From Desulforudis sp. (lineage in GTDB: Bacteria > Bacillota > Desulfotomaculia > Desulfotomaculales > Desulforudaceae): a stretch of DNA of 37,333 nt. Of the stretch, positions 5,042 through 33,288 are shown one piece after another. The notes beneath the pieces are model-generated. The model did no database searches. It saw only the letters and a program-made list of their open reading frames with translations, and was not told the origin of the DNA. The stretch lies in assembly GCA_014859075.1 (NCBI GenBank), contig JACUUW010000001.1, positions 1-37,333 on the forward strand, given 5' to 3'. Numbering within the stretch: position 1 is the first letter of the stretch; every line of letters starts with the position of its first letter. The translations under genes were made by a program, and so were the position numbers.

Positions 5042-5099
5042 GTGTGTGCGGTCAGTCAGTCAATCGGCAAACAACTGCCGCAAATTTTTTGCGTATCGG

Positions 5100-6310: not shown

Positions 6311-6331
6311 TCGGATCGCAATGCCGGTGTC

Positions 6332-6918: not shown

Positions 6919-7314
6919 CTACAGCTGCAGAGCCTCGTTCGGCTTGTAGATGACTACACCCAAGCCGTCCGAAACCACCAGCGATACCGGCGCTCCGGAA
7001 TCTTCAGCCACAAAGCTGGTCAGAATGAACATTTTCTTGGTGTCATATGCCTTATTGAAACGGCGGAACATCAACTCGTCCACACCGGAAATCACGGTGA
7101 TTTCCCCGTCGTGCCCGCAGACCTCCAGACTGAAACGACCGTCGTCCTGTCGTTTGAAACCAACCCGTACAGTGGCTTGACTGCCCGTCTCCACGCAACG
7201 GGCCACCTGTTCGGTAAGACCGTTGACTTCGGACAGTGCCCGATCCCGGTCAAGAAAACGGGCGCCGATGACGGGCACCCCATTAATAGATGCAAAGGCT
7301 GCTTCGAAACACAT
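6919..7314 (-). CDS. Hypothetical protein (131 aa), no family recognised
   Basis: ATG follows GAGGAGGG. The ORF lies on the same strand as its neighbours. Confidence 0.55.
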   Translation of the reverse strand: MCFEAAFASINGVPVIGARFLDRDRALSEVNGLTEQVARCVETGSQATVRVGFKRQDDGRFSLEVCGHDGEITVISGVDELMFRRFNKAYDTKKMFILTSFVAEDSGAPVSLVVSDGLGVVIYKPNEALQL

Positions 7315-7549
7315 AAGGCACCCTCCTCTTTGGCTCCATGGTATGAATCACCCGGAGGGTTTGTTAGTGATCATTCCCTTGCGATGTAATGTTTTCCATT
7401 ATACCGTGATCCCGGGATTCAATCCTCGAATCCGGCTTCATGCGGCCTTCCATCTCAGTCCTACGACCAACTCTATTCCGGTTTTTAAATGCGGCTACCG
7501 CATTCGCTCCGCCAGTCCGACGACCGGTGACCAAGACTGGCGACTGCTA

Positions 7550-18714: not shown

Positions 18715-20142
18715 TCAGTGCACAATTATGGAGGTCAGTTCCGGGTCGGTGGCTTGTACCGCAAACCCACGCACTTTGATTTCCAAAATATATTGTATCA
18801 CTTCCGCAGTCAGTTTTTCACCAGGGAATACTATCGGGATTCCCGGTGGGCAAATGCTGATCGTTTCGGCCGCGACCAGTCCGGCGGCCTGTTCGGGCGG
18901 CAAGGCCCTCGCGGGCAAAAGCCAGCTTTCCCGCGGTGTCAACACTTTTTCCGCCGCGGGCGGAAGACAGAAATCGGCCGTGTCGGACCGGCAAGATGAC
19001 CGGGTCCGTTCACGGGTCAGGGCGCGGAAAGCCCGGAGCGCCCGGACGATGTCTTGAACCCGTGCGCCCAGCCCGACCACGAGCAGGACGTACGCCGACC
19101 CGGCCATCTCCACCTGCACGCCGTATTGCCGGTCCAGAACGGCGGCCGCTTCGTAGCCGCTTAAACCAAGGCCGCCGGTGGAAACCACCACCTTGGTCGG
19201 ATCGCCCCTTCCGGGGCCGGCATCCAGAACCCGCACCCCGTCCAGAACCGCGAGCCCTTGGCGCAGCCGGGCGGCCAGTTCCACCGCCCTCCCTACGCGC
19301 CGCGGCCCGGAAACGGCCAACTGCCGCCGGGCCAGGTCCAGGGAAGCCATCAGCAGATATGAGGGGCTTGCGGTCTGGATGAGCGCCAACGCCCGGCGCA
19401 CCCGGTCGGCCGGCACTTGCGGCCCTTTAAGGTGCAGTAACGAACCCTGCGTCAAGGCGCCGCCCAGTTTGTGCATGCTCTGTACGGCCGCCGCCGCGCG
19501 CAGCCCTAAAGCCGGAAACGGCAGTGCGGGGTGAAACGGCAGGTGGGCGCCGTGAGCTTCGTCAACCAACAGGGGCAGCCCGGCCCCCCACACCGCCGCC
19601 GTCACCCCGGCATCCAACGTGGCCAGGCCGTGGTAGTCGGGGTGGGTCCACAACACCGCCGCCAGGTCCGGATGTGCTGCGAGGGCCGCCCGGACGCCGA
19701 CCGCCTCCGGCGGCAGGGGGATGCTGAATTCCCGGGAAAAGGGCGGGCTGACGTAGACCGGCTCGGCCCCCGAAAGCACCAGACCGCCGATGACCGAACG
19801 GTGGATGTTCCGGGGCAGGAGCACCTTTTGGCCCGGGCCCGTGGCGGCCAGCAAGAGGGCCTGGATCCCCGCCGTACTTCCGTTGACCAGAAAGAAAGTG
19901 TGGTCGGCCCCGTAGAGGGCGGCCGCCAACTCCTGGGCCCGAGCGATCGGGCCGGTGGGTGCGTGCAGGTCATCCAGTCCAGGCAGTTCAGTCAAATCCA
20001 ACCGCGCCAGCTCGCCCGTCAGGGCGAGCGGCAAACCCCTCCCGCCGACGTGTGCCGGGAAGTGAAAACCGGAACAACCCCGCGCCAAATGGCGTTTCAA
20101 AGCTTCAAACAAAGGCGCCCGCCGCTGCCCGGACATCGACAT
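18715..20142 (-). CDS. PLP-dependent Orn/Lys/Arg decarboxylase (YaaO-like)
   Basis: SMHK PLP-lysine motif in AVQSMHKLGGALTQGS. Its position upstream of tmk matches Bacillus. Confidence 0.85.
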   Translation of the reverse strand: MSMSGQRRAPLFEALKRHLARGCSGFHFPAHVGGRGLPLALTGELARLDLTELPGLDDLHAPTGPIARAQELAAALYGADHTFFLVNGSTAGIQALLLAATGPGQKVLLPRNIHRSVIGGLVLSGAEPVYVSPPFSREFSIPLPPEAVGVRAALAAHPDLAAVLWTHPDYHGLATLDAGVTAAVWGAGLPLLVDEAHGAHLPFHPALPFPALGLRAAAAVQSMHKLGGALTQGSLLHLKGPQVPADRVRRALALIQTASPSYLLMASLDLARRQLAVSGPRRVGRAVELAARLRQGLAVLDGVRVLDAGPGRGDPTKVVVSTGGLGLSGYEAAAVLDRQYGVQVEMAGSAYVLLVVGLGARVQDIVRALRAFRALTRERTRSSCRSDTADFCLPPAAEKVLTPRESWLLPARALPPEQAAGLVAAETISICPPGIPIVFPGEKLTAEVIQYILEIKVRGFAVQATDPELTSIIVH

Positions 20143-20471
20143 CGTCTTCCATCACCCTTGACTATTTCTGTTTTTCCCGGATGTTCATTTCCAACAGCAC
20201 AGCAGCCATTCCTGCTCCGTTCGGAACAGACCCATGTTCACTTAATTCTTTTTTGCAAAGCTGTGGACAAAGGAAGGCGGAAAAGGGGTCACGCACCTAT
20301 TTCCGCTCTGCCCGCAAAAGAAGACCGCCTTTCCGGGAGAAAAACAGCGCCCCTTTTCCCCTCCATGCCACCCGCCGCCGTTCAGCCGGTATGGTGGACG
20401 CCGGTTCCAGGCGTACGCGGCGCCGGGAAGAACAAACGTGAGCAGGCTTGAGTCCGGTTTTGCCTAAGATT

Positions 20472-20732
20472 CTACACCATCAACGTAAGTACGATCAGGA
20501 GGATCACGCCCGGCACCTGGAGCGCTCCGGCGGTTAGAACGGTAACCGGATTGATGGCCAGGTGAAAGCCGAAAAAAGAACCCCCCAGGTTGACCAACGC
20601 CAGCAACACCACGCCCACCACCACACAGGCGCCCAGGCGGTACAGGTACTTCAGCGGCGTCACGAAGAAGGAACCAACCAGGTAAAGTCCGGCCAACCCC
20701 AAAAGACCCAGTAGAATCAGCTTCCATTCCAC
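20472..20732 (-). CDS. bofA: Pro-sigmaK processing inhibitor BofA
   Basis: A two-TM protein similar to B. subtilis BofA (..NLGGSFFGFHLAINPVTVLTAGALQVPGVILL). GTG 20732 lies 9 nt after GGGAGG. It sits downstream of recR. Confidence 0.8.
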   Translation of the reverse strand: MEWKLILLGLLGLAGLYLVGSFFVTPLKYLYRLGACVVVGVVLLALVNLGGSFFGFHLAINPVTVLTAGALQVPGVILLIVLTLMV

Positions 20733-20792
20733 AGTATAACACCTCCCGGGTTCACCCTGATTACCCAATAACTATGAAGCCCGGCAGGTAAA

Positions 20793-21389
20793 TTATACCT
20801 CTCTTCTTCCTTCTATCGCCCGGGCCAGGGTCCGCCCGTCGGCATACTCCAGATCGGAGCCCACCGGCAGCCCGAAAGCCAGCCGGGTCACCCGCAACTC
20901 GGGAGAACGGAGCAACCGCGCCAGGTAAAGCGCGGTGGCCTCCCCTTCCACCGTGGCGTTGGTGGCCACGATGATTTCCCGAATTTGTCCTTTCCTTACA
21001 CGCCGGACCAGGCTGTCGATGTTCAGATCTCCGGGGCCCACCCCCTGCATCGGCGAAAGACTGCCGTTTAAAACATGGTACAGGCCGCGGTACCCGTGTG
21101 CCTTCTCGATGGCCAGGATGTCACGCGGCTGCTCCACAACGCAAACGACCTCCCGCGTCCGGCTCTGATCGCGACAAATGCCACACGGGCTTTCATCGGC
21201 GATATTGGCGCAGACTTCGCAGAAGACCAGTTTCTCGCGGGCTTCGACAATGGCCCGGCTTAAACCCTGCGCCACCTCCGGTGGCGCGGCGATCAGGTGA
21301 AAGGCCAGTCGTTGGGCCGTCTTCGGCCCGATACCCGGCAGTTTGGCCAGTTCCTCGACCAGGCGGGCCACCGAATGCGAATACTGCAA
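20793..21389 (-). CDS. recR: Recombination protein RecR
   Basis: LPGIGPKTAQRLAFHL, a C4 zinc finger and a Toprim region. Confidence 0.95.
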   Translation of the reverse strand: MQYSHSVARLVEELAKLPGIGPKTAQRLAFHLIAAPPEVAQGLSRAIVEAREKLVFCEVCANIADESPCGICRDQSRTREVVCVVEQPRDILAIEKAHGYRGLYHVLNGSLSPMQGVGPGDLNIDSLVRRVRKGQIREIIVATNATVEGEATALYLARLLRSPELRVTRLAFGLPVGSDLEYADGRTLARAIEGRREV

Positions 21390-21414
21390 AATCCTCGCTC
21401 CTCGTCGGCGTTAT

Positions 21415-21723
21415 CTAAAAGATCCCGGGGATGTTAATGCCGCCGGTCAGCTTGCCCATCTCCTCGGCCACCATCTCCCGCGACTGGCGCAAAACCTCGT
21501 TCACCGCCGTCAGGACCAGGTCCTGAAGCATCTCCGGGTCGTCCGGATCAATCGCCTCCGGCTTGATGGTGATACTCAACAACTCCTGCTTGCCGTTGGC
21601 GACGGCGGTGACCACACCCCCGCCCACGGTGGCCTCCATGGTGCGCTCACCGAGTTCCTCCTGCAACCGGACCATCTCGGCCTGAATTTTCTGAACCTGC
21701 TTCATCATTTTGTTGATCCCCAA
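21415..21723 (-). CDS. ybaB: YbaB/EbfC nucleoid-associated protein
   Basis: ..QKIQAEM...QEEL......GGGVVTAV.NG....L.I.I.PE.IDPDD.EMLQDLVL.A.NE. The start is either TTG 21723 (9 nt after GGGAGG) or ATG 21708. Confidence 0.85.
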   Translation of the reverse strand: MGINKMMKQVQKIQAEMVRLQEELGERTMEATVGGGVVTAVANGKQELLSITIKPEAIDPDDPEMLQDLVLTAVNEVLRQSREMVAEEMGKLTGGINIPGIF

Positions 21724-21751
21724 GGCACATAACCTCCCTGATTTAGGTAGT

Positions 21752-23110
21752 CTAAGGTTCCCCGTAATCACCGTCCAGCACACATGTGATCTGCCAACGG
21801 CCGGGGTAGAAGCGGTTTAAGACCTTCTCGAGTATACCCTTGTTCTCCGGCAAGGCAACCTTTTCCTTTGCCAGCTCGTCCCGGAATTTCAACTGTAGTT
21901 TACGGGGACCGGCCAAAATAGGTTCCGACCGCGCCAGCCACGGGCCGACCGGTGGGTTCCGCCGGCGAAACTCGGCCAGCACCTCGCCCCAGACCTGCTC
22001 CAGGTCGGGAGTCCCGTCGGCTCTACTGGATGCGCCGGCCCCAGCTTCCGCCGCCGCTCCCCGCCTCCGGGCCGACCCGACCACCGCCAGTTCCAGCGGC
22101 AGGATCTGCCGGGTGGCGAACCGCATCTCCTGTTCGGCGCGCGCAAACAGGGCCAACAGGTCGATCAACCGCTCCCGGTCCGATTCCGGCGGCCCAACGG
22201 CCGCCTGCCCGGCGCCATAAGCGGCGTGCAGCAAGCCGCGCAGGTAATCGGTGAGTTCTCGGGCGAAAATCCGCAGTTCCTTGCCCGCTGCCTCGACCTC
22301 CTGCAGCAGCACCAACGCCGGCCCGGTTTCCCCGGACAACAGCCGGCGCACCAACCGTTCCAGAACATCGTCGGTGACGGTGCCCAGGATGCTGTGCAGG
22401 TCGGCCAAGCTAATCCGGTCCTCACCCAGGGCCGCCGCCTGATCCAGGATGCCGAGGGCATCACGCAGGCTGCCATCCGCCACCCGGGCAATCAGGGCGA
22501 AGACACCGGATTCCGCCGTCAGCCCGGACTGCTCGGCCACTTCCTCCAGCCGCATTACCAGGTCTTTTCTGGTGATGCGCCGGAAGTCGAAACGCTGGCA
22601 GCGGGAGGTAATGGTCAGGGGAAGTTTATGCGGCTCGGTGGTCGCCAGGACAAAGATCACGTGTCCCGGTGGTTCCTCCAGTGTCTTCAGTAAGGCGTTG
22701 AAAGCCTCGTTGGTCAACATGTGGACTTCGTCAACAATATAGACCTTGAAGTCGCCGGCCGCCGGCCGGAACTTCACCTTTTCCCGGAGTTCACGAACCT
22801 CGTCGACGCCCCGGTTGGAGGCCGCGTCGATTTCCAGCACGTCCATCGAGGTGCCCGCCGTAATTGAGACGCAGGAAGGGCACTCGCCGCAGGGTTCCGC
22901 CCCCTGGCGCCGCGTGCAGTTCACCGCCTTGGCCAGCACCTTCGCCGTCGTCGTCTTGCCTGTTCCCCGCGGACCACAGAACAAGTAGGCGTGGGCCACC
23001 CGGCCCGCGCTGACCGCGTTTGCCAGCGTGCGGACCACGTGCGCCTGGCCGACAACCTCCGCGAACCGCTGCGGCCGCCAGGTCCGGTAAAGGGTCTGGT
23101 ATGGCAGGAT
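21752..23110 (-). CDS. dnaX: DNA polymerase III subunit tau/gamma DnaX (start unresolved)
   Basis: GPRGTGKTT, a C4 zinc module, DEVHML and SRCQRF. The conserved YQTLYRTWRPQRFAEVVGQ lies upstream of the first canonical start (GTG 23038). The frame is open only back to the TGA at 23114-23116. Confidence 0.85.
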   Translation of the reverse strand: MLPYQTLYRTWRPQRFAEVVGQAHVVRTLANAVSAGRVAHAYLFCGPRGTGKTTTAKVLAKAVNCTRRQGAEPCGECPSCVSITAGTSMDVLEIDAASNRGVDEVRELREKVKFRPAAGDFKVYIVDEVHMLTNEAFNALLKTLEEPPGHVIFVLATTEPHKLPLTITSRCQRFDFRRITRKDLVMRLEEVAEQSGLTAESGVFALIARVADGSLRDALGILDQAAALGEDRISLADLHSILGTVTDDVLERLVRRLLSGETGPALVLLQEVEAAGKELRIFARELTDYLRGLLHAAYGAGQAAVGPPESDRERLIDLLALFARAEQEMRFATRQILPLELAVVGSARRRGAAAEAGAGASSRADGTPDLEQVWGEVLAEFRRRNPPVGPWLARSEPILAGPRKLQLKFRDELAKEKVALPENKGILEKVLNRFYPGRWQITCVLDGDYGEP

Positions 23111-23312
23111 GCGTCACATCTTTCATGGTCCCTTAGTGTCCTTGAGCTTGAAGTCGCCTGAGATGCTTCGGGCACCGAGAAACGCACAAACCTGTCCAAT
23201 GCCTGGTCTACATCCCTGGGCAGAATCCGATTTCATTATACACCGAAACCAAACAACCAGCCATAACCCCCTAACGAACCGGTCAATATGCCGATCCCTG
23301 AACAGATACAAT

Positions 23313-23350
23313 CCAAAAAACCCCGGACTCTTGAGGGAGCCCGGGGTTTT
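23313..23350 (-). terminator. Rho-independent terminator after the beta-helix gene
   Basis: Minus strand AAAACCCCGG-loop-CCGGGGTTTTTTGG. Confidence 0.6.
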
Positions 23351-23357
23351 CATCTGC

Positions 23358-24075
23358 GGATGACTGTTACCCGTTGTTGTTGTTGCAGGGGAAAATCTTG
23401 TGCAGGTTGTTGAACTCCTGCTTGACGGTGATGTTTTCTTCGGGGTAAGGCCGAATGGCCGATACCAGCAGGTTCTCGTGCTTCCACAGTTTGTCGATGA
23501 CTTTGAGATCGACTTCCACCCGCGGATTCTCGGTATTCACGACCCGGCAGTCTTCGATGATCATGGTCTTACAAGAACCATCAATGAATTTGATTATGTC
23601 TCGGAACGCGGCTCTGTCTTCCGGGGTGTCCTGGAAGCCGTCTCCGCTGGGAAACTCGTGGAATTTGGTGAATAGACATTCCAAGGTGATGACATCCCTG
23701 ACGACCAGGAAGACAGTTTCACCATTGACCTCGACGCTCAGGATTACCTCGACGCCGACTTCGTTATCGACCTGCAGGCAGGCCATGTCGCCGGTCTGCA
23801 CCAGGGTCTCTTGGGCACAGAAGACCCGGCAGCTTTCGAGAGTGAGTAGGCCGGTGATGTTTCGGCCGCCCCGGCAGCCGACCACGGAGTCGATGCCCGG
23901 GATCGGGGTCTCGTGGGTGAGTTCCTCGACACAAATGAGCTTGACGTCCGGTACGCAGATGTCGTGGCACTGACAGGTCGCTTCTTCCTCCTGATACCCA
24001 AACGCTTCACGCAGTTCCTCGTCGGTGAAGATGGCGCAGCAGTCGGCACAGTTTCCGGTCGGGTCAACGCACACG
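23358..24075. repeat. Left arm of a roughly 717-bp inverted repeat (3' part of the beta-helix gene)
   Basis: The reverse complement aligns with 28357..29072. The 23761-23950 tract differs from its partner at one position in my comparison. Confidence 0.9.
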
Positions 24076-25256
24076 GCCACTGGTTCACCGAGCCACGGAA
24101 TGAAGTCAATCCTGTCACTGACCGGGTCGCCCAAACCCGTGGGATTCAGGGTCAAGTGAAACGGTCCGCTGGCGTCCCCCCACCAGTTGTTCGTTCCGTC
24201 CACCGTCTTAGCGGTGGCGTTAAAGACCCCCCAAGTGTTGTTTTCAATGTTGTTGAAGTGAATGGTGGGGTTGGCGTTACCCGGGGAATAGTAGTAAAGA
24301 TTACTCACATACACGCCCGCCCGGACGCTGTTTTTCAAAGAGTTTCCCTGTATCAGCGGTTCCAACGGGAAGGGGTCGGGCGGGATCCAGCCGCCGGGGC
24401 CCATCGAGAACAGATAAATCGCATCGCGGGCGCTGTCTTCAATCCTGTTGTTGGTGATCAGGATTTCGGCGGGCGCCGGACCCGTGGAAGGCACCCAGCC
24501 CCAAAATATGCCGGAGCGGTTGCAGTTCTTGATGGTATTGCCACTGATTTCCTCCGCCATGGACTGAATGATTACAATGCCTCCCGTTTCATCGAAACCG
24601 CCGATTCCGGCGTTCTTGATGCGGTTATCGCGGATAGTGACGTTTCGCTCGTCCCAGACCAGAGTGACACCACTGTTGAGGTGGTCCTCGATATCGTTGT
24701 CCTCGATCAGCAAACCGGAGCTGCTGGCCCGGGCGAAAATGCCGTCAATAGTGTTGTTTTTAATGGTGTTCCCAATCACCTGACTGGCACCATGGGGAAA
24801 GAGAACGACGCCCACCCGGTTGAAGCCGGTGCCCTGTCCGTTGTCTTCTATTACGTTGTTTTCGATATGCATGGCGGCCCCGTGGTTGGTCAGAACCCCC
24901 GCATTACCATGTCCGCGGATAATGTTGTTTGTAATGACGATATTGGTCAGGTTCGGAAAGGCCGCGCTGCCGGCCCGGATACCGTGCAGTGGTCCGTTTT
25001 CGATGGTGAGGCGGTTGACCGTTACGTCACCGGCGAGTATGTGAATAGTGGGGACTGCCGCCATACCTGCCGCATCCACAATCGCCACCCCGACTGCCGG
25101 ATCCGGTCCGGTGAGGGTCAGCGGCTTGTCGATAATCAACTGTTCATTGTAGGTACCCGGCGGTACCACCACCGTGGCACCAGGGGCGGCGGCGTCAATA
25201 GCGTCCTGAATAACAAAAGACCTGGTTTGGGCCTGCCGGATTTCTCCGTTACTCAT
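23367..25256 (-). CDS. Right-handed parallel beta-helix (NosD/PbH1-like) protein with a C-terminal 16-Cys module (629 aa, no signal peptide)
   Basis: It has repeated ..I.NN.I....GI.. turns and the NNWWGDASGP...NP.G.GD.VSD.IDFIPWL tail typical of NosD-like beta-helices. The last 235 or so aa duplicate 28357..29061. Confidence 0.85.
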   Translation of the reverse strand: MSNGEIRQAQTRSFVIQDAIDAAAPGATVVVPPGTYNEQLIIDKPLTLTGPDPAVGVAIVDAAGMAAVPTIHILAGDVTVNRLTIENGPLHGIRAGSAAFPNLTNIVITNNIIRGHGNAGVLTNHGAAMHIENNVIEDNGQGTGFNRVGVVLFPHGASQVIGNTIKNNTIDGIFARASSSGLLIEDNDIEDHLNSGVTLVWDERNVTIRDNRIKNAGIGGFDETGGIVIIQSMAEEISGNTIKNCNRSGIFWGWVPSTGPAPAEILITNNRIEDSARDAIYLFSMGPGGWIPPDPFPLEPLIQGNSLKNSVRAGVYVSNLYYYSPGNANPTIHFNNIENNTWGVFNATAKTVDGTNNWWGDASGPFHLTLNPTGLGDPVSDRIDFIPWLGEPVAVCVDPTGNCADCCAIFTDEELREAFGYQEEEATCQCHDICVPDVKLICVEELTHETPIPGIDSVVGCRGGRNITGLLTLESCRVFCAQETLVQTGDMACLQVDNEVGVEVILSVEVNGETVFLVVRDVITLECLFTKFHEFPSGDGFQDTPEDRAAFRDIIKFIDGSCKTMIIEDCRVVNTENPRVEVDLKVIDKLWKHENLLVSAIRPYPEENITVKQEFNNLHKIFPCNNNNG

Positions 25257-25394
25257 TATACATCCCTCGTAACATGTGTTTGTTAATTTTACAGTTTATT
25301 CCATGTAAAAGGAAGATGCTACTATTTGGACTGTAAATGCTGAGCAGGCCCAGGAAACAGCTTATCCCGTTCCAACCAATACGGTTTGAACCTT

Positions 25395-28007
25395 TCACCC
25401 GGACGTTGACGGCAACAGCTGAACCCGTGCCGGAATCCCGGGCACGATTCCGGGTTTTCGGTAAAAAACCACAACCACCCGTAAGGGACAACAGTCCGCG
25501 GTTCCTCCCACGACCCGGTCGACCGTACCGTTAAGTTCTTCACCCCCTACGGTCACCAGCGCCGTCAAGCCCTGCAGTTGCGAAACGGGGAGCGCCCACT
25601 CCTCTAGCAGGATGGATACCTGGAAACGGTCCGGGTCCTTGATGTGGGCCAGCACCACGTCCGGCCGGACCGCCGCGCCTTTTTCGACTAACAGGGCGGC
25701 GACTTTTCCCGCCACCGGCGACACCACCGTGTAGTCCGCCAGCCTCTCCTGGAGGTGCCGCTGGGCCTCGCGCAGGCGGTTCAATTCAATCTGCTCGGCC
25801 TTGAGGCCCGCAAGATCCGCCCCTGCAACCACGCGACCGAGCGGTTGACCAGCCGCCACGGTGTCGCCCTCGGCCACATACAGGTCGGCCAGCCGGCCGT
25901 CCTGTGCCGCACGCACGGGGAATTCTACTTTTTCCACCGCGCACAGCGTCTCCAGCTGGCCGTCTACCGTGTCGAGCACGATCCGCGGCCCAGGTGCTTC
26001 CCGCACTTCACCGCCGGTTTCCGGCCCTTCCGGCTGATCATCGGTGGGCAAAACGCCGCCGTACTCGCGCAGTATCCGCACCCGGAACCGGGTTCCCTCT
26101 TCGCCGGCGCGGCCGCCCGTCACCGGTGAAACCAACACTGCTTCAACCCTGTCGTGCTCCGGCAGGTATAAATCCACCGCCAACCCCTCGTCGAGTAACT
26201 GAAACCCAGGCCCTCCTTGACTCAGCGTGACGTCCAGCAACCGGTCGGAGAGAAGGGTGGCGATAACTGTGTCTGCAGTGACGTCCGCACCCGGCTGCAC
26301 ATACACCCCGGTAACGATCCCGGCCAGTTCGGATTTGAGCTCCAATTCCTTTCCTTGAGACAGACTGCCCATTCTCACCCAGCATTTGTCAATTTCGAAC
26401 TGGAGCTGGGAAAGCGCGAACTCGGTTTCGCGGGAATCAATCCGCAGCACAGCCTGCCCCTCGGTAACCGAGTCACCCGGTTCCACCTCGACCGCCGTCA
26501 CTAAACCGAACTCTTTGCCGTAAAGCTCCCTGGTTGCCGGAGCAACCACACCCTCCCCAACGGCCAGGACATGCTGGTTATTTTGAATTGCGAACACGCC
26601 CCACACGTCGTACTTGTTTATCCACCAGCCCACGGCCATGCCCAAAAACACCAATATAATGACCGTCAGGAGCAGAGTCCGACCCTTAGGTGAGTACCCA
26701 TCCCGGCTGACCTTGCCCCCTATTTGTTCTTTCTCCGGGTTCCGGGTTCGATCCGGTTTATCCTCTCTATAGGCCTTCCCATTACAGGCACCTTCGGCCC
26801 CGGTGTGCGCCCCAGGTGCCGGCTTTCCCGTCTCGGTTTCCCGGGGCTCGCTGTCCGTCGCGGTATCTTTGCGCCGCACGCCCCCCCCGGCCTGTGCTCC
26901 TTCGTCCGCAACCATGTCTTCAGCTATATCCTCCATATCCCCGCCGCCGGCCTCGTTTTCGTAATGTTGAGGACCGGCGGCATTGGCGGCGACAGCACCA
27001 AAACTCATACCCGGTGCCGAACTGTCTTCTTTCATCGGGTCGTCTTCTTCCTCTTCACTTTCCGCCGTCACACCGGTAAGAGTAAGCAGGGCCAGGCTTG
27101 TGTATATCACTGCGGTGGATTCCTTTTCTCCGGCACCCACCCACCGGCCGTCGGGTTGCTGGCAGCTGACCAGGAAATCCGCCATGTAGTCCCGCCGATC
27201 GCGCGCACCGAACATACCCGCAGCAGGCTCCAACATACCCGCGTGCCCAAGACTAAAAAGGTAATGATAATGCCAGCCGTAAGGAACATGTGTACCGGAT
27301 AGGGCGGCGTGGTGAACACCCAGCCGTTCCAACGCCCCGCCGGCCAGATTCCGGGCCTGGGACCGCACCTCCTGATCCGGCGAGGACAGACTGATCGTCA
27401 TCAGGCCGCATAAGGCCCCCGCGGTCATGGCCGGTAAGACAACAGCATCGCTGTTGAGCGGGTGATCACCCGGGCTGTAGACGAAGCTGCCATCCTTGTT
27501 GACGGCGTGGTTTTGGCGGTACCAGGCCAAGGCCCGCCGCCACGTCTCGGGCGGCACCGTTAACCCCCAAGCCCCGGCCTCCCGCAGGGCCAGCAGGGCA
27601 AACTGGGTGTTCGAGCCGTCCGCCGCCTGGGAGTCGCGGCAGTGACCCCAGCCGCCGTAAGACCACAAATGCTCGGGATCAGCGTGCTGGGCTCCAATCA
27701 GCCAGTCCGTGTCCGACTGCGCCCGCCTGAGGATGTCCGGCGTTTTGGGACCGCTAGCCAAGAGCGCCATGATCGTCAAGGCGCGGAAGTGAGTGGAGTC
27801 GGAAGGCCGGCAGTTCAGGATGTAGGCCACCGCGTCGGCCACCGCCGGTGCTGAAGCGGGGAGCCTGGCGGCCAAGAGGGCCATTACGGCAAAACCGGTG
27901 GAACCGGGTCCCCACTGCCCGTAACCACCGCCCGCTTTCTGTTGTGCTTTGAGCCAGAGAGCACCCTTTTCGAGGGCCCGGTCTACCCGTTCCTGAAGAC
28001 TCACCAC
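25395..28007 (-). CDS. Fusion protein: prenyltransferase/squalene-cyclase-like alpha/alpha toroid repeats, acidic linker, one TM helix, tandem HlyD/MFP-like barrel-sandwich units (870 aa)
   Basis: Four Q..(D)GG(W/Y)G-type repeats in the first 320 or so aa. EEEEDD-rich linker. TM segment LLLTVIILVFLGMAVGWWI. Four lipoyl-like hairpins (e.g. VSPVAGKVAALLVEKGAAVRPDVVLAHI) flank two short coiled coils. Confidence 0.8.
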   Translation of the reverse strand: MVSLQERVDRALEKGALWLKAQQKAGGGYGQWGPGSTGFAVMALLAARLPASAPAVADAVAYILNCRPSDSTHFRALTIMALLASGPKTPDILRRAQSDTDWLIGAQHADPEHLWSYGGWGHCRDSQAADGSNTQFALLALREAGAWGLTVPPETWRRALAWYRQNHAVNKDGSFVYSPGDHPLNSDAVVLPAMTAGALCGLMTISLSSPDQEVRSQARNLAGGALERLGVHHAALSGTHVPYGWHYHYLFSLGHAGMLEPAAGMFGARDRRDYMADFLVSCQQPDGRWVGAGEKESTAVIYTSLALLTLTGVTAESEEEEDDPMKEDSSAPGMSFGAVAANAAGPQHYENEAGGGDMEDIAEDMVADEGAQAGGGVRRKDTATDSEPRETETGKPAPGAHTGAEGACNGKAYREDKPDRTRNPEKEQIGGKVSRDGYSPKGRTLLLTVIILVFLGMAVGWWINKYDVWGVFAIQNNQHVLAVGEGVVAPATRELYGKEFGLVTAVEVEPGDSVTEGQAVLRIDSRETEFALSQLQFEIDKCWVRMGSLSQGKELELKSELAGIVTGVYVQPGADVTADTVIATLLSDRLLDVTLSQGGPGFQLLDEGLAVDLYLPEHDRVEAVLVSPVTGGRAGEEGTRFRVRILREYGGVLPTDDQPEGPETGGEVREAPGPRIVLDTVDGQLETLCAVEKVEFPVRAAQDGRLADLYVAEGDTVAAGQPLGRVVAGADLAGLKAEQIELNRLREAQRHLQERLADYTVVSPVAGKVAALLVEKGAAVRPDVVLAHIKDPDRFQVSILLEEWALPVSQLQGLTALVTVGGEELNGTVDRVVGGTADCCPLRVVVVFYRKPGIVPGIPARVQLLPSTSG

Positions 28008-28218
28008 TGATTCCTCCGAGTCATATCCTGATTGTGCTGATTTTCCGTTAAGCCTTCATGAGACTGTTAGTCAATAGATATGTGAAAACCCGCTTCCAGT
28101 TGCCGTGATGTCGAAGCCCTGACTTACAAGATATTTTTAGGAAAATTATGGTTTCAATGGAACGCTGATGGGTAATTTCCATATAATGTATTGCTAAACG
28201 AAAGGGGGGTTGTGGATT

Positions 28219-29061
28219 ATGCCAGAGGAGAAAGGCTCAGTGGTCGCCGAAAACTTGGAAGCACCGGTTTTCGCCGTTCCCCAAAAACATCTGGAAACCC
28301 CTCACACCAATATCGAAAAGGAGGCAAACCCCATGGCAGACGATAAGCTTCGTCAAGTGTGTAACGACCCAAACGAGAACTGTGCCGAATGCTGCGCCAT
28401 CTTCACCGACGAGGAACTGCGTGAAGCATTTGGGTATCAAGAGGAAGTGGCGACCTGTCAGTGCCACGACATCTGCGTACCGGACGTCAAGCTCATTTGT
28501 GTCGAGGAACTCACCCACGAGACCCCGATCCCGGGCATCGACTCCGTGGTCGGCTGCCGGGGCGGCCGAAACATCACCGGCCTACTCACTCTCGAAAGCT
28601 GCCGGGTCTTCTGTGCCCAAGAGACCCTAGTGCAGACCGGCGACATGGCCTGCCTGCAGGTCGATAACGAAGTCGGCATTGAGGTAATCCTGAGCGTCGA
28701 GGTCAATGGTGAAACTGTCTTCCTGGTCATCCGGGATACCATCGAATTTGAATGTGAATTCACCGAGTTCCATGAGTTTCCCAGCGGAGACAGCTTCCAG
28801 GACACCCCGGAAGACAGGGCTGCGTTCATGGACATAATCAAATTCATCGACGGCTCCTGCAAGACCATCATCATCGAATCCTGCGAGGTCGAGAATACCG
28901 AGAATCCCCGGGTCGTCGTCGAACTCAAGGTCATCGACAAGCTGTGGAAACACGAGAACCTGCTGGTGTCGGCCATTCGGCCTTACCCGGATAACATCAC
29001 CGTCAAGCAGGTGTTCAACGCTCTGCACGAGATTCAACCTTGCAGCAACAACAACGGGTAA
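28219..29061 (+). CDS. Stand-alone 16-Cys module protein, paralog of the beta-helix protein C-terminus
   Basis: ATG 28219 lies 9 nt after AAAGGGGGG. An alternative ATG at 28333 lies 7 nt after AAGGAGG. Homology to 23367..24075 starts at VC.DP..NCA.CC. Confidence 0.8.
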   Translation: MPEEKGSVVAENLEAPVFAVPQKHLETPHTNIEKEANPMADDKLRQVCNDPNENCAECCAIFTDEELREAFGYQEEVATCQCHDICVPDVKLICVEELTHETPIPGIDSVVGCRGGRNITGLLTLESCRVFCAQETLVQTGDMACLQVDNEVGIEVILSVEVNGETVFLVIRDTIEFECEFTEFHEFPSGDSFQDTPEDRAAFMDIIKFIDGSCKTIIIESCEVENTENPRVVVELKVIDKLWKHENLLVSAIRPYPDNITVKQVFNALHEIQPCSNNNG

Positions 29062-29072
29062 CAGTCATCCCA
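28357..29072. repeat. Right arm of the inverted repeat (stand-alone module gene)
   Basis: See the left arm. Similarity continues 11 nt past both stop codons (GGGTAACAGTCATCC). Confidence 0.9.
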
Positions 29073-29080
29073 GACGCAAG

Positions 29081-29114
29081 ACCCCAGGCTTGCCAGCAGG
29101 CCTGGGGTTTCTTG
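29081..29114 (+). terminator. Rho-independent terminator after the stand-alone module gene
   Basis: ACCCCAGGC / GCCTGGGGT forms a 9-bp stem, followed by TTCTTGTG. Confidence 0.6.
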
Positions 29115-29150
29115 TGCGGTGACGGGTTGGTCCGAACCTGGGAGCCACCT

Positions 29151-29840
29151 TCAATCTCCGGTACGACGGTCCTGCCCCGTGAGCCAGCCAATAAGCCCCG
29201 AACGACTCTCCCTTTTTTCTGTTTCAATGTCCGCGTTCTCAAGCTCCCCCCGCATCTTCGCGATAACATCCGGGCGTTTCAACTCCCGGGCGATAGTGGT
29301 CTCCAATTGCGCCAACTTGTTCTCGGCAGCGTCCAGCTTCTGCTCGATTCTATCCAACTGCTTCAGCCTTTCATCCAACACGTCCGGTCCAGGCGATTTT
29401 TTTTCGATCACGCCCAGTTCATCCACCTTCTTCTGGAGTGCTTCAAGCAGCCCCAGCTTATTGCCGACCGCCTCAAGGCCGGCATGGATCTGCTCCAGGA
29501 CGGCTTTCTGCTCAGGGCTTCCTACTTCCGTGCGATTCCAGTGCCGCGACTGGCTGAAGGGGGACTGCTTCTCCTGTTGAAGCCTCAGCTCCTTGGCGGC
29601 CTCCGGCGTGGCGCCGACTACGTAGGCTTGTGTCTTTCGCTTTTCATCCCTGCGAACCAGGTTATGGTCCTTCCTTTTCAAATCCGCACAGCCGCCCGCA
29701 GGGCCGGGGCCAGCGTATTTGATGCCATCTTTTGCCTCTTTCCCCCCCCGAGTTATGCCAACGGGTTCACGTTTGGTCACCAAAATACAGGCTGTTTGAC
29801 GGGCAGCAGCATAACGTGGCTTGGTTTTTCCTCGGGCCAT
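29151..29840 (-). CDS. Hypothetical basic/coiled-coil protein (229 aa)
   Basis: ATG lies 7 nt after AAGGAGGG. The C-terminal half is heptad-like (LEEALQKKVDELG..LDERLKQLDRIEQKLDAAENKLAQLE). Confidence 0.6.
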   Translation of the reverse strand: MARGKTKPRYAAARQTACILVTKREPVGITRGGKEAKDGIKYAGPGPAGGCADLKRKDHNLVRRDEKRKTQAYVVGATPEAAKELRLQQEKQSPFSQSRHWNRTEVGSPEQKAVLEQIHAGLEAVGNKLGLLEALQKKVDELGVIEKKSPGPDVLDERLKQLDRIEQKLDAAENKLAQLETTIARELKRPDVIAKMRGELENADIETEKRESRSGLIGWLTGQDRRTGD

Positions 29841-29914
29841 ACATCATCCCTCCTTATCACCGCCTACCTCAATCTATGCCCCGAGGCAAACTTTGGTGAT
29901 AAAGCCTTTACTTA

Positions 29915-29948
29915 CCAAATAAAGAGAGGGCGGTTTCCGCCCTCTCTT
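29915..29948 (-). terminator. Rho-independent terminator after the SRP RNA
   Basis: Minus strand AGAGAGGGCGG-loop-CCGCCCTCTCT followed by TTATTT. Confidence 0.6.
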
Positions 29949-29957
29949 CAAAAACAT

Positions 29958-30227
29958 AGCCGTGCACCTGCCTCTGAACAATGACTTCCGGGCGTTACCG
30001 CCGCAGGTAGCTCGAGTCAGGCACCCTTGCGGCACCCGGAGGACTTCCCTTAGTGCTGCTTCCGTCAGGACCTGACACGGTTCGAGAAACTCCGTCGCGC
30101 AAGACCCAACCGTCAACACCCCTTACGACGGGCGGACCCCACAAGCCAAGCCCTCGGACAGGAATTCAACCCCGCTGTAGCGGATTGCGGGTCACAGGGC
30201 ACCGCTACCTCCCCGTCTAGCACGGCT
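29958..30227 (-). ncRNA. ffs: Signal recognition particle RNA, large Bacillus type (about 270 nt)
   Basis: The minus strand reads AGCCGUGCUAGACGGGGAGGUAGCGGUGCCCUGU...GUCAGGUCCUGACGGAAGCAGCACUAAGGG...GGUGCACGGCU. This is colinear with B. subtilis scRNA, including domain IV. The 5' and 3' ends pair. Confidence 0.85.
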
Positions 30228-30235
30228 AATATTTA

Positions 30236-30452
30236 AGTCGTTGGTCGTCAGTCTTCGGTCGTCGGTGAAGACGGGGGAGTCTTCTCCCATCCCAGACTGA
30301 TACCAGACGATTTGTTGACTTTTTGTGTTACCTACAGACGCGCCGGCCTGACGACCGACCTGGTTCTCACTGAGACAATCAAGCTTTTTTCGGAATGCGG
30401 TTGTCCGCATTCCTTCCGCCAGTCCGACGACGGACCACCGACGACTGACGAC
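30236..30452. repeat. Composite intergenic repeat: inverted GTCGTC-rich ends enclosing hairpin GGAATGCGG-TTGT-CCGCATTCC plus TTCCGCCAGTCCGACGAC
   Basis: The same architecture is seen at 36001..36135. Partial hairpin-plus-tail units occur at 7495..7546, 35857..35900 and 36467..36500. Confidence 0.6.
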
Positions 30453-30461
30453 TAAATCATA

Positions 30462-30551
30462 TGGCGGAGAGAGTGGGATTCGAACCCACGAGGCGGTTAC
30501 CCGCCCACACGCTCTCCAGGCGTGCGCCTTCATCCGCTCGGCCATCTCTCC
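30462..30551 (-). tRNA. tRNA-Ser (anticodon GGA), CCA encoded
   Basis: Cloverleaf built by hand: acceptor GGAGAGA/TCTCTCC, anticodon stem CACGC/GCGTG with loop CUGGAGA, long variable arm, T-loop GGTTCGAATCC. Confidence 0.9.
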
Positions 30552-30638
30552 GGACTACAAAACCTCAGGCTCGTTTTACCACCCGACAATCGGAGAAACC
30601 CCAGAATACCGCACCTCTCCGACCACCGCAGCCTTCTC

Positions 30639-30667
30639 ATTGTACCACTAATCGCGGCTGATTTCAA
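30639..30667 (-). promoter_or_regulatory. SigmaA promoter TTGAAA-N17-TACAAT with TGn extension, upstream of tRNA-Ser(GGA)
   Basis: Read on the minus strand, about 80 nt upstream of the tRNA 5' end. Confidence 0.55.
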
Positions 30668-30849
30668 CTACACCGGTACCAGCCGAATGAGAAGGCGGCG
30701 ACCGTCCGGAGACATCGGGCGAAGGACCGGATAAGGCACTTGCGCACCCGGCTGTAACATTGCGCATATCATACGGCACAGGCAGGCCGTTTGAACGGCC
30801 GGCGCAAGTCCGAACCTCCTGGAATCAGGTTTAGGAGGACGCAGCCCAG

Positions 30850-33288
30850 ATGTCTCTCAGGGAAGCGACCCTCATCAGACTGAGCACACTGACCCAGAAA
30901 TGGCTTAACATCAAGAAGCCTCCCCGCCGGGGCCGCCGTTTTGATCAAAACGTCGTCAGAAAAGCCACCCCCAATTCCTTAGTACTGGCTAACAAAAACG
31001 GGCCAATTCTGGTTAGTCCCTTCAACCAGGGAATTCTTCGGGTCTACCTGCAAAGCGTCCGCCACCGGGAAGCCTGGTGGGAACAGAACTCCTGGGCGGT
31101 CGACCTGGCAAACATCAACCGGGACGGCTGGCGCCTGGAACAGGCCGAGGACGCCACGCTTGCGTTTACCTTGGCCGATGGGCTCCAGGCAAGCTTCTCC
31201 GTTGCCGCACCGGCGGGGCTCATCTCGTACCGGATTGGGCCGGACCTGGTGCTGACCGCACCGCTCCCCCCGCAGACCACGAAACAATGGCTGCTCGTCG
31301 ACAAGCGGCTTCCCCGTCCCGGCGGAGTCCGGGTTTTCGGCCTGGGCGAAAACACGCCCCCCATGGACAAAGCCGGGCAAAGGGTGGTCATGTGGAACAC
31401 CGACAACTCCGCGTACCGGGTCGGGGACACCCCGCTGTACAAGTCGCTGCCCGTGGCCGTATTTCAATACATCGACGGGCCGGCCTTAGGCCTGGTTTTT
31501 GACAACCCGGGTTATGCCGAGTTTGATTTCTCCGCCGACGGCAAAAGGCTGCTGTACTCCGTGAATGACACCGAACTGAGCTACTATCTCCTGTTGGGAC
31601 CATCCCTCCCCGAGGTTATGCGCCAGCTGACCACCCTGACCGGCAACACCGCTCCCTTGCCCAAGTGGGCCTTTGGATACCAACAGAGCCGCTGGAGCTA
31701 CGCGCCCTCCGCCCGGTTACGCGAAATCGCCGCCGAGTTCCGAAACCGGGACATTCCCTGTGACGTCCTCTACCTCGACATCGACTACATGGACCGGTAC
31801 AAGTGCTTTACCTGGGGAGAAGGTTTTGCGGACAGCCAGGACTTGATCCGGGAACTGCACCGCCACGGGTTCAAAATCGTGGTCATTCTCAACCCCGGCA
31901 TTAAAACCGAGCCGGGTTACCACGCCTATGATTCCGGCGTCAGCCGGGGCGTTTTCGTGACGGACCGAAACGGCAAAACCGCCGCCAAGAAGGTCTGGCC
32001 GGGATCCTGCTATTTTCCAGATTTCCTCAATAACTCCGTCGGAGAATGGTGGGCGGAACTAATCCGGGATTTCGCCGCCTCCGGCGTGGACGGCATCTGG
32101 TGTGACATGAACGAGCCTTCCACCTTCGACTGCCGGCGCACGCTGCCCCCGGACGTACAGCACAGGCTGACAGACGGAACGACTTTCCCCCACGGACGCG
32201 TCCACAACGTATACAGCCTCATGATGTGCCGGGCGACCCACGCCGGCCTTCAGGAAAACACCCGATTACCTTACGTCATCACGCGGTCGACTTACCTGGG
32301 GGGGCAACAGTTCGCCGCCACCTGGACCGGCGACAACGCCAGCGACTGGGATCACTTCAAAGCCGGCATACCCATGCTTTTAAACCTCGGTCTTTCCGGA
32401 CAACCGGTGACCGGGCCGGACATCGGCGGCTTCAGGGGAACGCCATCCCCGGAACTGTACGAACGCTGGATCCTTCAGGGCGCCCTCTACCCTTATTGCC
32501 GCACCCACACCAGCCGGGGCACCGGCGACCAGGAACCTTGGTCGTTCGGAGAGAAAGTGGAAGCCAGTGCCCGCCGGGCGATCAAGCTGCGATACCGGCT
32601 CGTTCCCTATCTCTATTCCCTCGCTTACGAGGCCGCCCAAACGGGTCAGCCGATAATGCGGCCGATTTTTTTCCACACGCCCACCGCCGAGACCTTGAAG
32701 CCCGAGTACTACGAAACGGAATTCTTGTTGGGTCCCTGCCTGCTGGTCGCCCCTTTGATGAGCCCCGGCTCGACCCGGACCTACCATCTCCCGCCGGGGC
32801 AGTGGTATTCGTGGTGGTGCCGGAAGGGCCGTCAGGGCGGACAGACTTACCAGACCCGCCCGGACGAAGACACCGACCTGCCGTTGTTCGTACGTGAGAA
32901 TACGGCCATTCCCCTGTACCCGGACCCACTGTCCCACATACCGGGCCGCTCCCTCCCCAGCCTGGAGCTGTTCATCACCGTGACGGGCAAGACCGAAGGG
33001 CTGATCGTAGACTACTTCGACAGGGATTCGCTGCTCGCCTATGCCGTCAAGGCGGCCGTCCGAAACGGTCACCTGGAAATCAGCGTCGACTTGATTCGGA
33101 AGGGCGACGTGCCGGTGGAGTATCAGCCTCCTGAGACCCTCCACTTCCTTTTGAACCACCGCCTCCAACAGGTTGAGTTCGGTTCGTCTTATCGCAGCCA
33201 TTCCGTGGTGCCGGATCCGGCCACCGACCCGTGGACCAGAATCACCGTCACCGGACCGGCGTTCCCTCTCCGGGCCGTTCTGTCTTAA
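30850..33288 (+). CDS. Glycoside hydrolase family 31 (alpha-glucosidase/alpha-xylosidase-like)
   Basis: GIWCDMNEPS nucleophile motif, TWTGDN and GPDIGGF. No signal peptide. Confidence 0.9.
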   Translation: MSLREATLIRLSTLTQKWLNIKKPPRRGRRFDQNVVRKATPNSLVLANKNGPILVSPFNQGILRVYLQSVRHREAWWEQNSWAVDLANINRDGWRLEQAEDATLAFTLADGLQASFSVAAPAGLISYRIGPDLVLTAPLPPQTTKQWLLVDKRLPRPGGVRVFGLGENTPPMDKAGQRVVMWNTDNSAYRVGDTPLYKSLPVAVFQYIDGPALGLVFDNPGYAEFDFSADGKRLLYSVNDTELSYYLLLGPSLPEVMRQLTTLTGNTAPLPKWAFGYQQSRWSYAPSARLREIAAEFRNRDIPCDVLYLDIDYMDRYKCFTWGEGFADSQDLIRELHRHGFKIVVILNPGIKTEPGYHAYDSGVSRGVFVTDRNGKTAAKKVWPGSCYFPDFLNNSVGEWWAELIRDFAASGVDGIWCDMNEPSTFDCRRTLPPDVQHRLTDGTTFPHGRVHNVYSLMMCRATHAGLQENTRLPYVITRSTYLGGQQFAATWTGDNASDWDHFKAGIPMLLNLGLSGQPVTGPDIGGFRGTPSPELYERWILQGALYPYCRTHTSRGTGDQEPWSFGEKVEASARRAIKLRYRLVPYLYSLAYEAAQTGQPIMRPIFFHTPTAETLKPEYYETEFLLGPCLLVAPLMSPGSTRTYHLPPGQWYSWWCRKGRQGGQTYQTRPDEDTDLPLFVRENTAIPLYPDPLSHIPGRSLPSLELFITVTGKTEGLIVDYFDRDSLLAYAVKAAVRNGHLEISVDLIRKGDVPVEYQPPETLHFLLNHRLQQVEFGSSYRSHSVVPDPATDPWTRITVTGPAFPLRAVLS

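Follow-up and report, generated by a model that had tools for sequence, protein, structure and literature searches.

Probable gene conversion between inverted copies of a cysteine-rich domain in an uncultured Desulforudis

An inverted repeat with both arms inside coding sequences raises the question of whether the locus is an invertible switch between two protein C-termini or the product of a duplication followed by recombination between the copies. The question was addressed in a window of 37,333 nucleotides from a Desulforudis metagenome contig (the whole stretch of DNA analysed), whose continuity through a 179-nt exact repeat hinges on the original assembler. The answer is very probably that a domain was duplicated, that the copies then diverged and that their centre was gene-converted between the inverted paralogues, with no programmed switch.

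Geometry of the repeat and the genes that carry it

Positions 23358-24075 of the window are the reverse complement of 29072-28357, with about 90% identity and one codon indel. An inverted repeat of ~717 bp with both arms coding had been described in a first-pass annotation and was recovered here by repeat search and by MAFFT and codon alignments. The repeat search returned two pieces, 23440-24074/28357-28991 (635 nt, 91% complementary) and 23358-23438/28990-29070 (81 nt, 86%), which are parted by a 3-nt indel; the codon alignment displays this indel as the PEEN versus PDN difference already reported. The spacing between the arms is 4282 nt. A chance origin of the arm pairing is excluded, because no other inverted repeat within the 12 kb searched exceeds 32 nt, and the longest of these match at 70-85%, a chance-level quality.

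The left arm (23358..24075, minus strand; repeat search and alignments) consists of the final 236 codons of a 629-aa fusion gene (23367..25256, minus strand), which encode the cysteine-rich domain at the C-terminus of the fusion protein, and of 9 nt beyond the stop codon. Residues 1 to ~390 of this protein correspond to a NosD/pectate-lyase-like right-handed beta-helix (Pfam PF13229, PF05048 and PF12708; homologues) and residues ~392-629 to the cysteine-rich domain; no signal peptide was apparent on inspection by eye. The right arm (28357..29072, plus strand; repeat search and alignments) lies in a stand-alone gene for the same domain (28220..29061, plus strand; 280 aa), for which an alternative start is annotated at 28333 (242 aa). 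The start is most likely the ATG at 28220, which is followed by an N-terminal LEAPxFA motif conserved in orthologues, and a sigma-K-like promoter motif, AC-N16-CATATAATG (28162..28188, plus strand), is located 58 nt 5' of it. The repeat therefore spans ~84% of the gene, which had been described as nearly the whole of it. Both genes show a Shine-Dalgarno sequence, and the stand-alone gene alone shows a promoter-like motif as well.

Both genes end in a predicted hairpin: an intrinsic terminator with a U-run 3' of the fusion gene (23315..23351, minus strand; -32.4 kcal/mol, z = -6.5 by folding) and, in weak similarity to it by alignment, the terminator of the stand-alone gene (29075..29116, plus strand; -36.9 kcal/mol, z = -4.7 by folding). 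The similarity said to run 11 nt past the stop codons is in fact perfect for 9 nt past each, after which a weaker likeness continues into both hairpins. Antisense ORFs of 172 aa also sit within both arms; they were rejected as genes and taken for a by-product of composition, as neither their frame nor their length is conserved among orthologues.

Between the arms lies an 870-aa gene (25395..28007, minus strand) whose product begins with a toroid part like that of squalene cyclases and prenyltransferases, continues with an acidic linker and a hydrophobic stretch that is read as a membrane segment, and ends in an HlyD-like membrane-fusion part. This gene probably shares a transcript with the fusion gene. 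A conserved operon of a beta-helix gene and an 870-aa gene was sought and not found, typical members of the beta-helix family being scattered single genes.

Divergence along the arms

The similarity between the arms had been called uneven, and it proved to be so more sharply than claimed. A tract of 228 nt (left copy 23756..23981, minus strand; right copy 28450..28677, plus strand) holds a single difference (23802/28629) and is identical over 179 nt in a row, whereas the other 474 aligned coding nt of the arms hold 66 differences. None of 20000 permutations matched either tract statistic (p<5e-5). The partner of the nearly identical stretch 23761-23950 is 28481-28670, which corrects the 28491-28680 given previously. 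Synonymous divergence between the copies (Nei-Gojobori dS) is 0.53 in the N-part, 0.018 in the centre and 0.34 in the C-part. The omega values between the arms range from 0.16 to 0.43, and those of the diverged variable halves (0.26-0.43) indicate purifying selection, on which ground diversifying selection on these halves was rejected. The idea that the copies evolved asymmetrically was rejected as well, since each matches the outgroups at 9 sites.

Two relatives served to interpret this dip: a locus (L057) whose DnaX is 89% identical, and a strain ~96% identical that was recovered from X2, a related groundwater run. The search for sequencing runs found only X2 and the source run X1, a volcano metagenome, both as k=31 contigs; the comparison for conversion involves one genome with both arms and one close strain. 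Third-position identity in the N-part, centre and C-part is 74/99/79% between the left and right arms, 100/97/98% between the right copy and X2 and 61/63/63% between the right copy and L057. When sites were classified among left arm, right arm and X2, the centre had 1 left-unique and 3 X2-unique sites versus 63 left-unique and 7 X2-unique sites in the flanks (Fisher p=0.007); that is, the centre groups the left arm with the right arm and the flanks group the right arm with X2. The dS dip, the flat third-position identity to orthologues and this three-taxon incongruence bear out the gene conversion that the first-pass annotation had proposed. The arms are thus same-genome paralogues with a sharply bounded low-dS tract, phylogenetic incongruence and no local constraint, as gene conversion requires. 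Because the orthologues show no dip in synonymous divergence, conversion of the central tract, and not sequence constraint, is the reading that the sequences support. The tract would date from near or after the strain split, as placed by X2. Over the 228 nt of the centre, the right copy differs from X2 at 3 positions, a rate like that of its flanks, and was thus not overwritten by a diverged donor, so it is the probable donor; the conversion most likely ran from the stand-alone gene to the fusion, a direction that rests on three sites.

Could the centre instead be held identical in both copies by a nucleotide-level element or by very strong purifying selection? It does encode the conserved cysteine-rich core of the domain, CxCHDICV...GCRGG, with several invariant residues. 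Yet synonymous sites are near-identical between the arms too, the same codons diverge normally in orthologues (the third-position identity to L057 is that of the flanks) and the antisense ORFs are not conserved in the family, so that regional constraint appears extremely unlikely. It is very unlikely, too, that a metagenome assembler collapsed or mis-joined similar repeats, so that either the near-identical centre or the entire arrangement would be an artefact. The independent Logan assembly of the source run does break at the arms and contains a 339-nt collapsed contig in which left and right variants are mixed; these contigs, at k=31, cannot span the identical core and are silent on orientation. 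At 15.6, the k-mer depth of this contig nevertheless fits two copies with a shared centre, the expected values being 17.2 for two identical copies and 10.6 for one. The lone difference within the tract was kept, which argues against merged bubbles, and further differences stand at the tract edges (12 and 8 nt apart on the left; 28678/28680, 49 nt beyond 28629, on the right). The independent sample X2 confirms the right arm at 96% identity and keeps the 3' stub of the left arm where it is expected. A diversity-generating retroelement was also considered and rejected, as the window contains no reverse transcriptase and the arm differences are of all substitution types rather than adenine-specific.

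In Salmonella and E. coli, RecA-dependent gene conversion has been described between tufA and tufB, an inverted pair of duplicate genes (PMC5485169, PMC6735719). As in that system, oppositely oriented paralogues share one chromosome, non-reciprocal exchange over tens to hundreds of nt would keep part of them identical and the same repeats could also invert by reciprocal exchange. Unlike the tuf genes, which are whole genes hundreds of kb apart, the copies described here are limited to a domain and are separated by 4.3 kb. Instead of near-complete identity they form a mosaic with flanks at dS 0.3-0.5, and the dependence on RecA is only presumed.

Origin of the fusion and the question of inversion

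The relatives of the locus give an indication of how the fusion came about. Scans covered 49 loci on genome contigs and 63 on metagenome contigs, among which no same-species locus with both arms was found. Fusions occur there only in L052 and in the Desulforudis loci L003, L064 and L065, with copies 39-54% identical, and L057 lacks a fusion gene but carries dnaX together with the toroid and stand-alone genes. Compared with P0088, the window's fusion is 79% identical in the beta-helix part and only 45% in the C-domain; the window's C-domain is 89% identical to the stand-alone gene of its own genome and 58% to the stand-alone gene neighbouring P0088. The whole C-terminal domain of the fusion is of the stand-alone type and would for that reason have been copied from the neighbouring gene. 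The stand-alone gene is the resident copy and the conserved orthologue. X2 is collinear with the window, yet it has neither the fusion gene nor the 870-aa gene: the left terminator and the last few fusion codons are joined to 28089, which amounts to a 4.7-kb deletion.

Recurrent inversion of 24076-28356, which would swap the C-terminal halves of the beta-helix and stand-alone genes and create heterogeneity within the population, is very unlikely. The repeat had been considered a substrate for homologous inversion, and as geometry this stands: long inverted repeats lie within two opposed coding sequences and the identical core is an adequate RecA substrate. What an inversion would achieve is a different matter. 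Because both 5' ends lie inside the flipping segment, it would merely swap the diverged C-terminal halves, which differ by ~18% in protein, of two expressed genes; both are complete with their own 5' ends, so nothing is turned on or off, and the halves are under the purifying selection described above. Two of four sequence attributes of gene-altering inversions (PMC9881135) were found, namely long repeats and very unequal unique upstream parts (137 nt versus 1181-3932 nt; asymmetry 0.88-0.97 by the formula of that study), although the shorter partner has a conserved N-terminus with its own start codon, preceded by a Shine-Dalgarno sequence and a promoter-like motif. The orientation attribute is absent: the units are head-to-head and the arms lie at their outer, 3' ends, a layout that makes the distance between the arms as large as possible, and validated gene-altering inversions tend toward minimal repeat distance (PMC9881135), whereas the head-to-head spacing of 4282 nt compares with ~300 nt if the units were tail-to-tail, as in L052. 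Fusion and stand-alone gene are head-to-head in the window, tail-to-tail in L052 and in tandem in L003, and the locus thus rearranges over evolutionary time. The contig was nevertheless assembled through both arms in one orientation and X2 shows the same inner-to-outer linkage as the window. Comparison of related strains, suggested earlier as a way to detect the inverted configuration, yielded X2 as the only related strain, collinear and with the fusion deleted.

The shufflon-like switching that had been put forward was not supported. In the R64 shufflon, the Rci recombinase acts on multiple 19-bp sfx repeats and rearranges the C-termini of pilV. The present locus resembles it in that the C-terminal segment of a surface-type protein could in principle be exchanged by inversion, but it has one pair of long diverged arms, no Rci-like gene and no alternative cassettes. 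No integrase, invertase or transposase was detected by Pfam in the ~26 principal ORFs of at least 92 aa of the 37-kb window, and the 12-kb repeat search returned the single long repeat pair and no multiple short crossover sites. With gene-altering programmed inversions (hsdS invertons, the Mu Gin/P1 Cin tail-fibre segments and the loci of PMC9881135) the locus shares long inverted repeats in two opposed coding sequences, unequal unique upstream parts and 3' parts that are exchangeable behind a constant 5' part. Unlike these, it lacks a nearby recombinase and its head-to-head layout sets the repeats far apart; its short partner is a complete, conserved gene with its own predicted expression signals in place of a promoterless cassette; and no variation was seen in X2 or the assembled contigs, the halves being ~18% different and under purifying selection. 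A related proposal, that inversion proceeds independently of a recombinase, swaps the C-termini of a beta-helix-anchored and a free spore-surface protein and leaves the tract as a by-product of frequent arm pairing, is very improbable; if it were true, inversion without a recombinase would generate spore-to-spore heterogeneity.

Under the preferred reading of duplication, divergence and conversion, the arms would be paralogous copies of a ~235-codon domain from a small uncharacterised cysteine-rich family of spore-forming Bacillota. The stand-alone domain, probably together with its terminator, would have been copied in frame behind a NosD-like beta-helix, presumably by duplication rather than by conversion, and the fusion copy would have been made or completely overwritten after the split from L057. 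The fusion copy then diverged under purifying selection (dS 0.3-0.5, omega 0.2-0.4) before the central 228 bp were re-homogenised, more recently, in a non-reciprocal exchange by homologous recombination between the two. Occasional RecA-mediated inversion via the arms may also take place, with no sign of a programmed switch, and in the sister strain the fusion and 870-aa genes were simply deleted.

The cysteine-rich domain family

The domain belongs to a family of ~59 clusters at 50% identity, all in spore-forming Bacillota. Cultured carriers of the single-copy gene include Syntrophaceticus schinkii, Pelosinus sp. and Oscillospiraceae LBM23126. The protein contains ~7% cysteine, and no signal peptide was recognised by eye. 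Searches of the domain against Pfam, NCBIfam, PHROGs and PDB sequences returned no match, and a Foldseek search of PDB and BFVD with its AlphaFold2 model (mean pLDDT 82.6) gave nothing at E<0.001. The neighbourhood of the stand-alone gene is conserved in relatives, with a squalene-cyclase-like membrane protein divergent upstream and a small coiled-coil protein convergent downstream. The toroid part of the 870-aa gene corresponds to the first of these, being the conserved divergent neighbour in L011, L057 and L060. In 23 of 50 loci the stand-alone gene has a small partner protein with the motif KKSTYWHQQ beside it; in the window, the product of the convergent coiled-coil protein gene (29151..29840, minus strand) is read as its counterpart from motif (here SQSRHWNRT) and position, although this ORF did not join the BLAST cluster of the partner protein.

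A sigma-K-like motif is present in 48 of 86 upstream regions of the family versus a background of 5% (p=1e-38), and this enrichment suggests that the product is a late mother-cell protein, a component of the spore coat or exosporium. Cysteine-rich proteins of the spore coat and exosporium of Firmicutes include CotY/CotZ and CdeC. The domain family is similarly cysteine-rich, without a signal peptide by eye, restricted to endospore formers and enriched for a sigma-K-like motif upstream, and is probably a spore-surface component; it resembles no characterised coat protein in sequence or fold.

The mechanism at work in this locus is not new, but ordinary concerted evolution of duplicated genes. 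The locus offers a clean and datable case of concerted evolution at the level of a domain, from a spore-former not in culture, in which a domain would have been copied and partly re-homogenised and the fusion lost in a sister strain. The more promising lead is the domain family itself, which combines a confident model without a structural match, conserved partners and a sigma-K-like signature, and which therefore offers a candidate, open to test, for a new module of the spore coat or exosporium of anaerobic Firmicutes.

The inverted repeat and its setting

The window comes from an endospore-forming Firmicute and covers housekeeping DNA close to the origin, with serS, tadA, tRNAs, the SRP RNA (29960-30225), dnaX, ybaB, recR, tmk, holB, a PSP1 gene, metG, tatD, ksgA and the sporulation protease gene yabG. 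Four genes sit between the SRP RNA and dnaX: a coiled-coil gene (29151-29840, minus strand, a 229-aa ORF), the stand-alone gene (28220-29061, plus strand), an 870-aa minus-strand gene (25395-28007) that joins a squalene-cyclase-like toroid N-part to an HlyD-like C-part, and a 629-aa gene (23367-25256, minus strand), the first ~390 residues of which form a NosD/pectate-lyase-type beta-helix. Elsewhere, a 1125-aa ORF (1736-5113, plus strand), with no Pfam match at E<1e-4, adjoins a CAP-domain (cysteine-rich secretory protein family) gene (5100-6104). The mechanically called dnaX ORF starts at GTG 23038; the conserved DnaX N-terminus (LPYQTLYRTWRPQRF...) extends upstream to CTG 23107, aligned with the TTG start in the related locus L057, and dnaX probably starts ~23 codons earlier with a non-canonical start codon.

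A repeat search of 20000-32000 returned one outstanding inverted repeat, in two pieces separated by a 3-nt indel (23440-24074 with 28357-28991, 635 nt, 91% complementary; 23358-23438 with 28990-29070, 81 nt, 86%). The arms are spaced by 4282 nt, and no other inverted repeat in this interval exceeded 32 nt. Global and codon alignments placed the left arm in the final 236 codons of the 629-aa gene and the right arm in the plus-strand gene ending at 29061, confirming the ~717-bp inverted repeat inside two coding regions described in the first-pass annotation; its codon indel (EEN versus DN) is also real. The near-identical stretch does hold a single difference (23802/28629), but its limits have been corrected to 23756-23981 and 28450-28677, and the similarity past both stop codons amounts to 9 nt of exact identity after each, not 11 nt. 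Each arm also carries an antisense 172-aa ORF (23455-23973, plus strand; 28458-28976, minus strand); these were rejected as genes, since neither frame nor length is kept among orthologues.

Gene conversion in the central tract

Nei-Gojobori estimates between the arms gave a dS of 0.53 in codons 3-33 (omega 0.16), 0.018 in the central codons 34-109 and 0.34 in codons 110-237 (omega 0.32). When the differences were shuffled 20000 times, a 228-nt window with at most one difference or a 179-nt identical run never arose. Sequence constraint was rejected as the cause of this dip because, at third codon positions, the stand-alone gene matches its orthologues about equally well in the N-part, centre and C-part (100/97/98% against X2, a groundwater metagenome run with a related strain; 61/63/63% against L057), whereas the arms match each other at 74/99/79%.

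The X2 contig L002 (2275 nt, 96% identical over the stand-alone gene) served as third taxon. The flanks hold 63 left-unique and 7 X2-unique sites and the centre 1 and 3, respectively (Fisher p=0.007), so that the two paralogues are the closest relatives in the centre, and the right copy and its X2 orthologue in the flanks. This grouping bears, at the sequence level, the signature of conversion, dated to about the strain split or later. Only 3/228 central nt separate the right copy from X2, a divergence no higher than that of the flanks, so no diverged donor overwrote the right copy, and conversion likely ran from the stand-alone to the fusion gene.

Central identity could in principle be an assembly artefact, and the Logan k=31 assembly of the source metagenome run (X1) indeed breaks at the arms, with one collapsed 339-nt contig mixing variants of both. 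However, the window retains an isolated SNP inside the tract and more differences at both tract edges, and the depth of the collapsed contig (15.6) is close to the 17.2 of two copies sharing the centre and far from the 10.6 of one copy, which makes an artefact very unlikely. The proposal of gene conversion is thus upheld by the low central dS, the flat orthologue identity and the three-taxon incongruence, and every conversion test runnable on sequence points the same way. The closest analogue is the concerted evolution of tufA/tufB. There, RecA-dependent conversion between inverted duplicates leaves tracts that measure tens to hundreds of nt, and these repeats also give rise to occasional chromosomal inversions (PMC5485169, PMC6735719). 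By this analogy, the locus would represent an already known type of process, tufA/tufB-type concerted evolution by gene conversion.

The proposed inversion and the history of the left arm

The arms had also been proposed as a substrate for homologous inversion with shufflon-like switching of the C-terminus. The geometry of the first part stands: crossing over within the identical core would flip 24076-28356 and exchange C-terminal halves that differ in ~18% of residues. There would be no on/off switching, since neither gene would lose its 5′ end. The locus was scored for the features by which validated gene-altering inversions can be predicted (PMC9881135). It resembles these in repeat length. 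Its asymmetry is numerically high (0.88-0.97), although biologically the short partner is itself complete and conserved as a gene. Unlike them, it shows no orientation matching, as the arms lie at the far ends, and no neighbouring recombinase; Pfam scans of the ~26 principal ORFs of at least 92 aa in the 37-kb window gave no integrase, invertase, transposase or reverse transcriptase. The locus therefore fails two defining tests of inverton/shufflon membership, and programmed switching between the arms is unsupported and very unlikely; occasional RecA-mediated inversion may still occur.

In related strains, X2 keeps the left terminator and the last few left-arm codons (23286 to ~23383) fused directly to ~28089, a 4.7-kb deletion having removed the fusion and 870-aa genes. 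Its linkage is that of the window (stand-alone N-terminus with right-type C-terminus, left-type stub on the dnaX side), and the inner-outer linkage gives no sign of an inverted ancestor. In the window the fusion and stand-alone genes are head-to-head; L052 has them tail-to-tail and L003 in tandem. These three fusion-bearing lineages share only 56-65% protein identity, and their orientation differences do not come down to flipping a single segment. On L002 (1-1132 compared with window 23079-23135), the dnaX match ends after the first ~56 nt, a DUF8426 gene and a P-loop protein (GPPGTGKT, McrB-like by eye) stand upstream in place of dnaX, and another 151 nt (window 23136-23285) are missing; this reflects either an insertion or rearrangement beside dnaX or a chimeric contig.

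The beta-helix part (24076-25256) belongs to a large Bacillota family of 540-600 aa (homologues P0088-P0154, 55-79% identical), most members of which end in a different ~170-aa region without Pfam annotation. The cysteine-rich C-domain occurs only in a few: the window protein, P0088 (L052), the Desulforudis protein P0155 (L003, L064, L065) and perhaps P0231. With at least two unrelated C-terminal modules, the beta-helix C-terminus is modular in evolution. The window protein and P0088 are 79% identical in the beta-helix part and 45% in the C-domain. The window fusion C-domain is 89% identical to the window stand-alone gene and 58% to that of L052, compared with 39-54% between the two copies within L052 and likewise within L003, neither of which has long nucleotide repeats between its copies. 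The left domain thus belongs to the stand-alone type, and these identities indicate that it was duplicated from, or fully overwritten by, its resident stand-alone neighbour. This event postdates the divergence from L057, as third-position identity is higher between left and right (74-79%) than between the right copy and L057 (61-63%). In L057 (DnaX 89% identical), dnaX is accompanied by the stand-alone gene and a toroid gene of 318 aa, and a fusion gene is absent. Weak left-right similarity reaches into both terminator hairpins, which favours a DNA-level duplication with the terminator included. Both copies have since changed equally (9 sites each match outgroups) and are under purifying selection.

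A cysteine-rich family of spore-forming Bacillota

The cysteine-rich domain had no match in Pfam, NCBIfam or PHROGs. At 90% identity its family falls into 85 clusters, made up entirely of hypothetical proteins from Bacillota MAGs; at 50% identity, a set of 1.84 billion proteins contains 59 representatives. The 49 genomic loci found, almost always with one copy each, are restricted to spore-forming Bacillota (Desulforudis, Syntrophomonadaceae, Syntrophaceticus, Thermacetogenium, Oscillospiraceae, Christensenellales, Tissierellia, Pelosinus and Sporomusaceae). A typical member has 230-400 aa, ~7% cysteine and, by eye, no signal peptide. The AlphaFold2 model of the domain (53 sequences) confidently predicts very long beta strands (pLDDT 82.6, pTM 0.77), and Foldseek against PDB or BFVD returned nothing better than E=0.02. 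Extra copies occur in two relatives: L011 has a frameshifted direct copy across the toroid gene (7058-7804 and 9928-10681, 86-89% nucleotide identity), adjoining a transposase-like ORF, and L014 two tandem copies (4797-5486 and 5671-6408, ~77% identical). These duplications are independent ones and mark the gene as prone to local duplication.

In 23/50 loci the convergent downstream neighbour is a small coiled-coil protein bearing a KKSTYWHQQ-like motif, and from motif and position the 229-aa ORF of the window is read as its counterpart. A toroid protein, squalene-cyclase-like and read as a membrane protein, is divergent upstream of the stand-alone gene in the closest relatives (L057, L060 and L011), exactly as in the window. 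By tblastn, the HlyD-like membrane-fusion half of the 870-aa protein has no match in these toroid neighbours (318, 449 and 524 aa, respectively); L057 DNA just downstream of its shorter gene aligns to window 26476-26558, which suggests a deletion or truncation on that side. The motif AC-N16/17-CATAnnnT[A/G], which matches the sigma-K promoter consensus of Bacillus subtilis, was present in 48/86 distinct family upstream regions compared with 5% of random 400-nt windows (p=1e-38), and in the window lies 58 nt upstream of ATG 28220. From this we infer that family proteins are produced late in the mother cell, which would make the family, with its partners, a candidate for a new module of the spore coat or exosporium. 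This uncharacterised, sigma-K-associated domain family is a more interesting by-product of the analysis than the conversion between the arms.
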